NCBI RefSeq assembly: GCF_003334765.1
Contig: NZ_QOWT01000007.1
Length of the DNA: 64,000 nucleotides
Direction: 5' to 3' (one strand)
Origin: Escherichia coli
GTDB lineage: Bacteria > Pseudomonadota > Gammaproteobacteria > Enterobacterales > Enterobacteriaceae
Positions 26,778 through 30,139 of this stretch are shown here, piece by piece. Made by a program: the position numbers and the translations under genes. The stretch's first letter is position 1; the number at the start of each line of letters is the position of its first letter. The notes under the pieces are model-generated. The model saw only the letters and a program-made list of their open reading frames with translations, searched no databases and was not told the origin of the DNA.

Positions 26778-28148
26778 ATGTTGAATAATGCTATGAGCGT
26801 AGTGATCCTTGCCGCAGGCAAAGGCACGCGCATGTATTCCGATCTTCCGAAAGTGCTGCATACCCTTGCCGGGAAAGCGATGGTTCAGCATGTCATTGAT
26901 GCTGCGAATGAATTAGGCGCAGCGCACGTTCACCTGGTGTACGGTCACGGCGGCGATCTGCTAAAACAGGCGCTGAAAGACGACAACCTTAACTGGGTGC
27001 TTCAGGCAGAGCAGCTGGGTACGGGTCATGCAATGCAGCAGGCCGCACCTTTCTTTGCCGATGATGAAGACATTTTAATGCTCTACGGCGACGTGCCGCT
27101 GATCTCTGTCGAAACACTCCAGCGTCTGCGTGATGCTAAACCGCAGGGTGGCATTGGTCTGCTGACGGTGAAACTGGATGATCCGACCGGTTATGGACGT
27201 ATCACCCGTGAAAACGGCAAAGTTACCGGCATTGTTGAGCACAAAGATGCCACCGACGAGCAGCGTCAGATTCAGGAGATCAACACCGGCATTCTGATTG
27301 CCAACGGCGCAGATATGAAACGCTGGCTGGCGAAGCTGACCAACAATAATGCTCAGGGCGAATACTACATCACCGACATTATTGCGCTGGCGTATCAGGA
27401 AGGGCGTGAAATCGTCGCCGTTCATCCGCAACGTTTAAGCGAAGTAGAAGGCGTGAATAACCGCCTGCAACTCTCCCGTCTGGAGCGTGTTTATCAGTCC
27501 GAACAGGCTGAAAAACTGCTGTTAGCAGGCGTTATGCTGCGCGATCCAGCGCGTTTTGATCTGCGTGGTACGCTAACTCACGGGCGCGATGTTGAAATTG
27601 ATACTAACGTTATCATCGAGGGCAACGTGACTCTCGGTCATCGCGTGAAAATTGGCACCGGTTGCGTGATTAAAAACAGCGTGATTGGCGATGATTGCGA
27701 AATCAGTCCGTATACCGTTGTGGAAGATGCGAATCTGGCAGCGGCCTGTACCATTGGCCCGTTTGCCCGTTTGCGTCCTGGTGCTGAGTTGCTGGAAGGT
27801 GCTCACGTCGGTAACTTCGTTGAGATGAAAAAAGCGCGTCTGGGTAAAGGCTCGAAAGCTGGTCATCTGACTTACCTGGGCGATGCGGAAATTGGCGATA
27901 ACGTTAACATCGGCGCGGGAACCATTACCTGCAACTACGATGGTGCGAATAAATTTAAGACCATTATCGGCGACGATGTGTTTGTTGGTTCCGACACTCA
28001 GCTGGTGGCCCCGGTAACAGTAGGCAAAGGCGCGACCATTGCTGCGGGTACAACTGTGACGCGTAATGTCGGCGAAAATGCATTAGCTATCAGCCGTGTG
28101 CCGCAGACTCAGAAAGAAGGCTGGCGTCGTCCGGTAAAGAAAAAGTGA
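26778..28148 (+). CDS. glmU: Bifunctional GlcNAc-1-P uridyltransferase / GlcN-1-P acetyltransferase
   Basis: ORF track 456 aa; [28 protein letters not shown]; C-terminal hexapeptide-repeat region. Confidence 0.95.
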
Positions 28149-28309
28149 TTCTGGCCGGCTAACCCGGTCACATGGGATGAGGAGATAACATAATCTCCCT
28201 CCCACAAGCAGTAACTATAAAAATAACCCCACTCTCTACAAGGCTCGGGGCGCCCGAAAAAACGGGCATACAGGTTGACCGACAACGATATAAATCGGAA
28301 TCAAAAACT

Positions 28310-30139
28310 ATGTGTGGAATTGTTGGCGCGATCGCGCAACGTGATGTAGCAGAAATCCTTCTTGAAGGTTTACGTCGTCTGGAATACCGCGGATATGACT
28401 CTGCCGGTCTGGCCGTTGTTGATGCAGAAGGTCATATGACCCGCCTGCGTCGCCTCGGTAAAGTCCAGATGCTGGCACAGGCAGCGGAAGAACATCCTCT
28501 GCATGGCGGCACTGGTATTGCTCACACTCGCTGGGCGACCCACGGTGAACCTTCAGAAGTGAATGCGCATCCGCATGTTTCTGAACACATTGTGGTGGTG
28601 CATAACGGCATCATCGAAAACCATGAACCGCTGCGTGAAGAGCTAAAAGCGCGTGGCTATACCTTCGTTTCTGAAACCGACACCGAAGTGATTGCCCATC
28701 TGGTGAACTGGGAGCTGAAACAAGGCGGGACTCTGCGTGAGGCCGTTCTGCGTGCTATCCCGCAGCTGCGTGGTGCGTACGGTACAGTGATCATGGACTC
28801 CCGTCACCCGGATACCCTGCTGGCGGCACGTTCTGGTAGTCCGCTGGTGATTGGCCTGGGGATGGGCGAAAACTTTATCGCTTCTGACCAGCTGGCGCTG
28901 TTGCCGGTGACCCGTCGCTTTATCTTCCTTGAAGAGGGCGATATTGCGGAAATCACTCGCCGTTCGGTAAACATCTTCGATAAAACTGGCGCGGAAGTAA
29001 AACGTCAGGATATCGAATCCAATCTGCAATATGACGCGGGCGATAAAGGCATTTACCGTCACTACATGCAGAAAGAGATCTACGAACAGCCGAACGCGAT
29101 CAAAAACACCCTTACCGGACGCATCAGCCACGGTCAGGTTGATTTAAGCGAGCTGGGACCGAACGCCGACGAACTGCTGTCGAAGGTTGAGCATATTCAG
29201 ATCCTCGCCTGTGGTACTTCTTATAACTCCGGTATGGTTTCCCGCTACTGGTTTGAATCGCTAGCAGGTATTCCGTGCGACGTCGAAATCGCCTCTGAAT
29301 TCCGCTATCGCAAATCTGCCGTGCGTCGTAACAGCCTGATGATCACCTTGTCACAGTCTGGCGAAACCGCGGATACCCTGGCTGGCCTGCGTCTGTCGAA
29401 AGAGCTGGGTTACCTTGGTTCACTGGCAATCTGTAACGTTCCGGGTTCTTCTCTGGTGCGCGAATCCGATCTGGCGCTAATGACCAACGCGGGTACAGAA
29501 ATCGGCGTGGCATCCACTAAAGCATTCACCACTCAGTTAACTGTGCTGTTGATGCTGGTGGCGAAGCTGTCTCGCCTGAAAGGTCTGGATGCCTCCATTG
29601 AACATGACATCGTGCATGGTCTGCAGGCGCTGCCGAGCCGTATTGAGCAGATGCTGTCTCAGGACAAACGCATTGAAGCGCTGGCAGAAGATTTCTCTGA
29701 CAAACATCACGCGCTGTTCCTGGGCCGTGGCGATCAGTACCCAATCGCGCTGGAAGGCGCATTGAAGTTGAAAGAGATCTCTTACATTCACGCTGAAGCC
29801 TACGCTGCTGGCGAACTGAAACACGGTCCGCTGGCGCTAATTGATGCCGATATGCCGGTTATTGTTGTTGCACCGAACAACGAATTGCTGGAAAAACTGA
29901 AATCCAACATTGAAGAAGTTCGCGCGCGTGGCGGTCAGTTGTATGTCTTCGCCGATCAGGATGCGGGTTTTGTAAGTAGCGATAACATGCACATCATCGA
30001 GATGCCGCATGTGGAAGAGGTGATTGCACCGATCTTCTACACCGTTCCGCTGCAGCTGCTGGCTTACCATGTCGCGCTGATCAAAGGCACCGACGTTGAC
30101 CAGCCGCGTAACCTGGCAAAATCGGTTACGGTTGAGTAA
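28310..30139 (+). CDS. glmS: Glutamine--fructose-6-phosphate aminotransferase
   Basis: ORF track 609 aa; N-terminal MCGIVGAI (Ntn Cys2) and two SIS domains. Confidence 0.97.

Follow-up and report, generated by a model that had tools for sequence, protein, structure and literature searches.

Which structure in the spacer between glmU and glmS of Escherichia coli masks the ribosome binding site (RBS) of glmS, and what would open it? Two hairpins stand out in the sequence ahead of the glmS start, and an earlier note had supposed that one of them sequesters the RBS. Glucosamine-6-phosphate (GlcN6P), the product of GlmS, is the first committed precursor of peptidoglycan and LPS, and the glmS leader is the place where enterobacteria set GlmS levels. 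The system that controls the glmS 5′ UTR has reportedly been described by Kalamorz (2007), Joanny (2007), Urban and Vogel (2008), Reichenbach (2008), Salim (2012) and Göpel (2014). RNase E-dependent cleavage of the glmUS co-transcript directly after the glmU UGA leaves a monocistronic glmS mRNA that has the 161-nt spacer as its 5′ UTR. Translation of this mRNA is poor and the message is unstable unless full-length GlmZ, with the help of Hfq, pairs upstream of the RBS. The GlmY/GlmZ circuit confers intrinsic resistance to antibiotics that inhibit GlmS (PMC4908143).

The window (the whole stretch of 64,000 nucleotides that was analysed) carries on its plus strand, to which all positions refer unless stated otherwise, an ORF of 456 aa (26778–28148) and an ORF of 609 aa (28310–30139), which RefSeq names glmU and glmS, and the segment 28100–28360 is 100% identical to E. 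coli chromosomes. The stop codon UGA that ends the glmU ORF lies at 28146–28148 and the ATG of glmS, given by both the ORF and the RefSeq annotation, at 28310–28312; position 28149 directly follows the UGA and position 28309 directly precedes the ATG. The two ORFs and their annotation thus make the interval 28149–28309 exactly the spacer between the glmU stop and the glmS start of an enterobacterial glmUS operon, and we hold with high confidence that it is the intercistronic leader of E. coli glmUS, the known site of control by RNase E, GlmZ and Hfq. The biology of this locus is already known, as it is the textbook glmS leader, and the value of the present analysis lies in a base-level map of the processing site, the GlmZ site, the masking stem and the Hfq motifs.

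The region 28140–28330 (191 nt) folds more stably than 200 of 200 dinucleotide shuffles (z −3.13), in agreement with the description of a structured glmU–glmS intergenic region in the earlier note. Four local hairpins are present in the ensemble of the leader, which we refer to as hairpin 0, hairpin 1, the core stem-loop and hairpin 2, along with a fifth that is weak and imperfect, in which 28268–28289 pairs with the Shine–Dalgarno (SD)/AUG region at 28294–28315. For comparison, a pattern scan of species genomes yielded 24 Enterobacteriaceae leaders, and a metagenome scan anchored on GACAACG and the glmS start raised the set to 62 leaders (54 unique) from Escherichia, Citrobacter, Salmonella, Phytobacter, Superficieibacter, Intestinirhabdus and metagenomes.

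At the 5′ edge of the leader, the RNase E processing at the glmU stop that the earlier note had cited as established is supported by the literature at the level of single bases, as the major RNase E-dependent 5′ end was mapped by Joanny et al. between AAAAAGUGA and UUCU (PMC1885654). The bases 28140–28152 read AAAAAGTGATTCT, a verbatim match to this context that places the cut between 28148 and 28149, and by identity with the mapped context the site in this DNA is a candidate RNase E site. A minor 5′ end, mapped in the same work between CACAU and GGG (PMC1885654), is likewise present verbatim, between 28173 and 28174 just 3′ of hairpin 0, and the two processing positions flank this hairpin. 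The 5′ end of the processed glmS mRNA, −161 in Salim et al. (PMC3439879), corresponds to 28149. Two adjacent stem-loops may help recognition by RNase E according to the review of Göpel (PMC4152352), and these are hairpins 0 and 1. Hairpin 0 (UGGCCGG-CUAAC-CCGGUCA, 28152–28170; dG −10.3 kcal/mol, z −2.65, pair probabilities 0.76–1.0) starts right after the glmU stop codon and was absent from the list in the earlier note; in E. albertii and Escherichia sp. MOD1 its place is taken by other stems (GAUCGG/CCGAUC and GGCUGG/CCGGUC). Hairpin 1 (28173–28204), identified by folding and covariation, consists of an apical stem that pairs GGAGAU (28181–28186) with AUCUCC (28193–28198), a loop AACAUA and a bulged lower stem, with a dG of −15.4 kcal/mol (z −3.0; 3 of 200 shuffles equally stable). 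Compensatory variants of its apical stem occur in other genera (GGGGAU/AUCCCC, GGCGAUA/UAUCGCC, GAGGAU/AUCCUC and GGAGAG/CUCUCC), its lower stem covaries (GGG/CCC versus GAG/CUC) and its loop is kept across relatives as AAnAUA, while the most distant leaders have another GC-rich hairpin in its place. Taken together, hairpins 0 and 1 give a z of −3.94, with none of 200 shuffles folding as well, and the cleavage site would be single-stranded and framed by the two.

Hairpin 2 (28252–28267), seen by sequence, folding and comparison, is composed of GCCCG (28252–28256), a loop of six A (28257–28262) and CGGGC (28263–28267); it is conserved and lies immediately 5′ of the GlmZ site. As a local segment its energy is within chance (z −1.05; 31 of 200 shuffles), and in the ensemble of the whole leader its pair probabilities are 0.92–1.0. 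The stem is retained in relatives with compensatory changes (GCCUG/CAGGC, CCGGC/GCCGG and ACCC/GGGU), and since the loop changes freely in sequence and length, A6 is not a conserved motif. ERIC/IRU-like repeats of ∼65–130 nt (e.g. ...GTGAATCCCCTGGAGC.../...GGGAGCTTACTAAAGTAAGTGACC...) are inserted in some glmS leaders, namely in several Citrobacter, Salmonella arizonae, Superficieibacter and Intestinirhabdus genomes, with the conserved modules left intact; they lie between hairpin 2 and the GlmZ site in leaders L011, L028, L039, L052, L062, L071, L074, L075 and L131, and upstream of the core in L090 and L100. As such insertions are tolerated, hairpin 2 and the GlmZ site need not lie at a fixed distance from each other.

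The start region itself bears out the weak SD described in the earlier note, in that the only complementarity to the anti-SD near the glmS start is a core GGA at 28297–28299, 10 nt before the AUG (−3.5 kcal/mol). On the processed mRNA, folded from 28149 onward, the entire pairing probability of the SD and the AUG falls on 28268–28289 and is 0.0 on hairpins 0, 1 and 2 and on the middle region. Because the SD and AUG pair solely with this segment, the mask is predicted to be a third, weak stem-loop at 28268–28315 that the earlier note did not list. In the MFE structure (pair probabilities 0.6–0.89) this imperfect stem-loop joins 28268–28276 to 28306–28315, which includes the AUG, 28281–28282 to 28301–28302, and 28286–28289 to 28294–28297, which includes the first bases of the SD. 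A local fold gives an alternative register (UUGACCGA/UCGG..UCAA), and in either register the 5′ half of the stem is 28268–28289. When 28270–28288 is forced to be single-stranded, the probability that the SD hexamer (28295–28300) is unpaired rises from 0.48 to 0.93, and in a longer construct it reaches 0.70 on the same forcing. By itself the masking stem is thermodynamically weak (dG −7.9 kcal/mol, z −1.08).

The 5′ half of this stem is also where GlmZ is predicted to bind. In published work, GlmZ pairing was predicted at −41 to −19 of the glmS UTR and validated by compensatory mutations, the site being 15 nt long and GlmZ binding the left half of the SD-masking stem-loop (PMC4152352). GlmZ was not found within the 64-kb window (glmZ and glmY are annotated elsewhere on the E. 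coli K-12 chromosome), and as glmZ lies outside the window, the MG1655 sequence was used to scan windowed duplexes with an accessibility correction by opening energies. The top-ranked duplex in the leader joins 28269–28289 to GlmZ nt 149–170 through 15 bp in two helices, ACAGGUU (28270–28276) with nt 163–169 and GACAACGA (28281–28288) with nt 150–157, around an internal loop GACC (28277–28280). It coincides with the published −41 to −19 site, in agreement with the GlmZ activation in the glmS 5′ UTR that the earlier note had cited, and the leader is thereby complementary to single-stranded GlmZ sequence at about the published position. The hybridization energy is −19.2 kcal/mol and the total −11.3 or −8.8 kcal/mol depending on the construct, and the score of the non-pairing homologue GlmY is only −4.2 kcal/mol; the energy of the GlmZ duplex is not unusual, as 13 of 83 dinucleotide-shuffled UTRs score equally well or better, and energy alone would thus not single out the site. 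For the E. coli sequence, an SD-occluding stem-loop with the GlmZ site as its 5′ half is obtained in silico, and GlmZ nt 150–169 would occupy the 28268–28289 half of the mask and so free the SD.

The reading of the earlier note, in which the hairpin at 28173–28204 or that at 28252–28267 sequesters the glmS RBS and GlmZ opens it, is to be weighed against this stem-loop. It is correct that both hairpins exist at the positions given there, as sequence and folding agree, and that they are stable in the ensemble and conserved; moreover, hairpin 2 abuts the GlmZ site. However, both are self-contained, neither has an arm complementary to the SD or the AUG, the pairing probability of the SD on each is 0.0 in the ensemble, and the GlmZ site lies 3′ of both. 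In several leaders of Citrobacter, Salmonella arizonae and Superficieibacter, ERIC-like insertions of ∼130 nt lie between hairpin 2 and the GlmZ site, and one leader (L231) lacks hairpin 2 entirely. The published model in turn assigns the masking to a separate stem-loop (PMC4152352), as is predicted here, which leaves sequestration by a named hairpin very improbable; a role of either eye-catching hairpin as the RBS mask is contradicted in silico.

Two further readings each have some evidence in their favour. In the first, hairpin 2 or the spacer would terminate or attenuate transcription, or an internal promoter would lie in the spacer, and glmS would be uncoupled from glmU at the level of transcription and not of RNA processing. 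There is one sigma-70-like match at 28167–28194 (GTCACA-16-CATAAT, 9 of 12), a possible glmS-specific promoter was raised by Joanny et al. for residual monocistronic mRNA in rne mutants (PMC1885654), and the C-rich, G-poor tract at 28189–28238 has a composition typical of Rho loading sites. Yet the number of promoter matches does not exceed chance (1 found versus 0.6 expected), no terminator-like site is present in 27800–28600, hairpin 2 is followed by AUACAGG and not by a U-tract, and the Rho idea concerns composition alone. Inactivation of RNase E leads to accumulation of the full-length 3.5-kb glmUS transcript (PMC1885654), and we consider transcriptional uncoupling unlikely. The leader might instead be a cis-acting metabolite sensor, a riboswitch or ribozyme that answers GlcN6P directly in the manner of the Gram-positive glmS ribozyme (RF00234), with which it shares the 5′ UTR position, the gene and the logic of feedback by GlcN6P, and its strong structure (z −3.13) with an invariant 24-nt stem-loop would suit such a role. 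The ribozyme, however, acts in cis and cleaves itself in dependence on a metabolite, whereas activation of the E. coli leader comes from an sRNA that acts in trans, and GlcN6P sensing is attributed in the literature to RapZ and GlmY and not to the mRNA. The RF00234 covariance model gave no hit in the leader at the gathering threshold or at E up to 10, nor did any other Rfam family apart from two chance hits at the permissive threshold, to mir-9412 and a Pyrobaculum sRNA, so that the spacer is not a glmS ribozyme or known riboswitch, and direct sensing by the leader has a negligible probability. The preferred reading is that of an sRNA-activated leader in which the stem-loop at 28268–28315 is predicted to mask the SD.

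Across relatives, the parts of the GlmZ site and the mask behave differently. The motifs CAGGU and GACAACG, which form the two GlmZ helices, are invariant in the 62 leaders, and the stretch that separates them differs among leaders in both its sequence and its length (UGACC, CAGC, UAGC, CGGC, CGAAA, CGCAU and CAGAA), these variable columns being the internal loop of the duplex. A hairpin of ∼12 nt (e.g. CAUGGCGUAAUGCCAU and ACAGGCAUAAUGCCU), the stem of which covaries, separates the GlmZ site from the SD in every other genus examined, and is missing from E. coli, E. albertii and Escherichia sp. MOD1 (28288–28294 in the window); as it is missing only in Escherichia among these genera, the E. 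coli leader is interpreted as a derived, shortened form. The masking stem was not recovered by RNAalifold when the segment from the GlmZ site to the AUG was aligned across leaders, and although its pairing is conserved (84.5% of cells paired), its covariation is not beyond chance, with 347 of 500 shuffles reaching its score. In the ensembles of the 54 unique leaders the mean probability of SD pairing with the GlmZ site is 0.12 and conserved masking of the SD is not seen; by the nearest-neighbour model this pairing is ∼0 in leaders of the Salmonella- and Klebsiella-like kind (GGUCAGCGA ... AUCAGGAA), and only Escherichia and UUGACCGA-type Citrobacter leaders show strong predicted masking. Since almost no SD pairing is predicted in the Salmonella- and Klebsiella-like leaders, the masking as modelled may be specific to Escherichia, or other effects such as stabilization of the mRNA or remodelling by Hfq may contribute.

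Upstream of the mask, the glmS UTR is described as having two (ARN)3 motifs (PMC4152352), both of which footprint with Hfq in published work. A regular-expression search of the 161 nt returned exactly two matches, AGCAGUAAC at 28207–28215 and AAAAAUAAC at 28219–28227, each a candidate site for the distal face of Hfq, and by their sequence these would be the published Hfq sites, the former presumably ARN-1 and the latter ARN-2. The motif at 28219–28227 is predicted to be single-stranded (probability of being unpaired 0.88–1.0), is invariant in the 24 genome loci and varies in more distant leaders. The first motif is unpaired with a probability of only 0.1–0.3 and may thus be harder for Hfq to reach than the second. 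Its bases AGCAGU (28207–28212) pair, in either MFE fold obtained for the processed mRNA, with AUUGUU in codons 4–5 of glmS (∼28318–28323), a pairing that closes the whole leader into a multibranch loop and of which both sides are conserved for other reasons.

A near-invariant element of the leader is the core stem-loop CCCC-ACUCUCUACAAGGCUC-GGGG at 28227–28250 (24 nt with a loop of 16 nt; stem pair probabilities 0.97–0.98). Of the 62 enterobacterial leaders, 61 carry it without any change and only L205 deviates, by a deletion of 2 nt; among closer relatives the conserved block extends to 34 nt (28217–28250). The core is better conserved than the (ARN)3 motifs, than either hairpin 1 or hairpin 2 and than the spacer within the GlmZ site, and is intact even in distant leaders in which hairpin 1 is lacking and hairpin 2 has another stem. 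When E. coli was searched for further copies, only the one in the glmS leader was returned, which is unannotated, and the sequence was not found in the searchable literature. Together with hairpin 2, the core would act as a structural or recognition module of an Hfq/GlmZ-responsive leader. We put forward only tentatively, as a rather unlikely option, that the core is a sequence-specific recognition element for a further partner, which may be a protein, a second contact with GlmZ or GlmY, or a feature for loading of Rho or the ribosome. If this were true, activation of glmS would involve more than unmasking of the SD, which would fit the absence of predicted SD masking in Salmonella- and Klebsiella-type leaders. 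The loop bases CAAGGCU (28239–28245) are complementary to GCCUUA of GlmZ (nt 28–38) and of GlmY (nt 143–149), in the latter at the processed 3′ end, and the corresponding duplexes of 5–8 bp (accessibility-corrected −4.7 kcal/mol with GlmZ and −5.6 kcal/mol with GlmY) may be due to chance. The C-rich, G-poor segment 28189–28238, with 13–14 C versus 2 G per 40 nt, reaches from the 3′ arm of hairpin 1 across the ARN motifs into the 5′ half of the core; its composition is similar to that of a Rho loading (rut) site, so that glmS could conceivably be subject to translation-dependent polarity.

Set beside known systems, this leader is the same locus as the E. coli/Salmonella glmS 5′ UTR with its factors GlmZ, GlmY, RapZ, Hfq and RNase E, and nothing in it differs in kind. 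The gene pair, the processing sequence, the 15-bp GlmZ site at −41 to −19, the two (ARN)3 motifs, the two stem-loops by the cleavage site and an SD-masking stem-loop with a GlmZ-bound left half are all common to the published UTR. To this are added the weakness of SD masking and its lack of conservation in silico outside Escherichia-type leaders, the absence from Escherichia of the 12-nt spacer hairpin of other genera, and the near-invariant 24-nt core. The anti-antisense activators (DsrA, RprA and ArcZ on rpoS, RyhB on shiA and Qrr on vca0939) work by the same principle, in that an Hfq-dependent sRNA takes the 5′ arm of the mask and frees the SD, and they likewise require upstream (ARN)x Hfq sites. 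Unlike the other targets, glmS is an internal cistron released by RNase E processing, and unlike the other sRNAs, GlmZ is controlled by the adaptor protein RapZ and the decoy sRNA GlmY.

Rfam comparisons also returned matches elsewhere in the window. Full-length matches on the minus strand were obtained to the enterobacterial sRNA STnc410 at 26537–26694 (188 bits, E 1.6e-42), in the atpC–glmU intergenic region and oriented antisense to the atp and glmUS operons, and to AsdA, an antisense RNA of the dnaA mRNA, at 58759–58839 (102 bits). Positions 1–170 on the minus strand hold the 5′ end of a 16S rRNA gene that is cut by the window edge (Rfam SSU_rRNA_bacteria, model positions 1–164).
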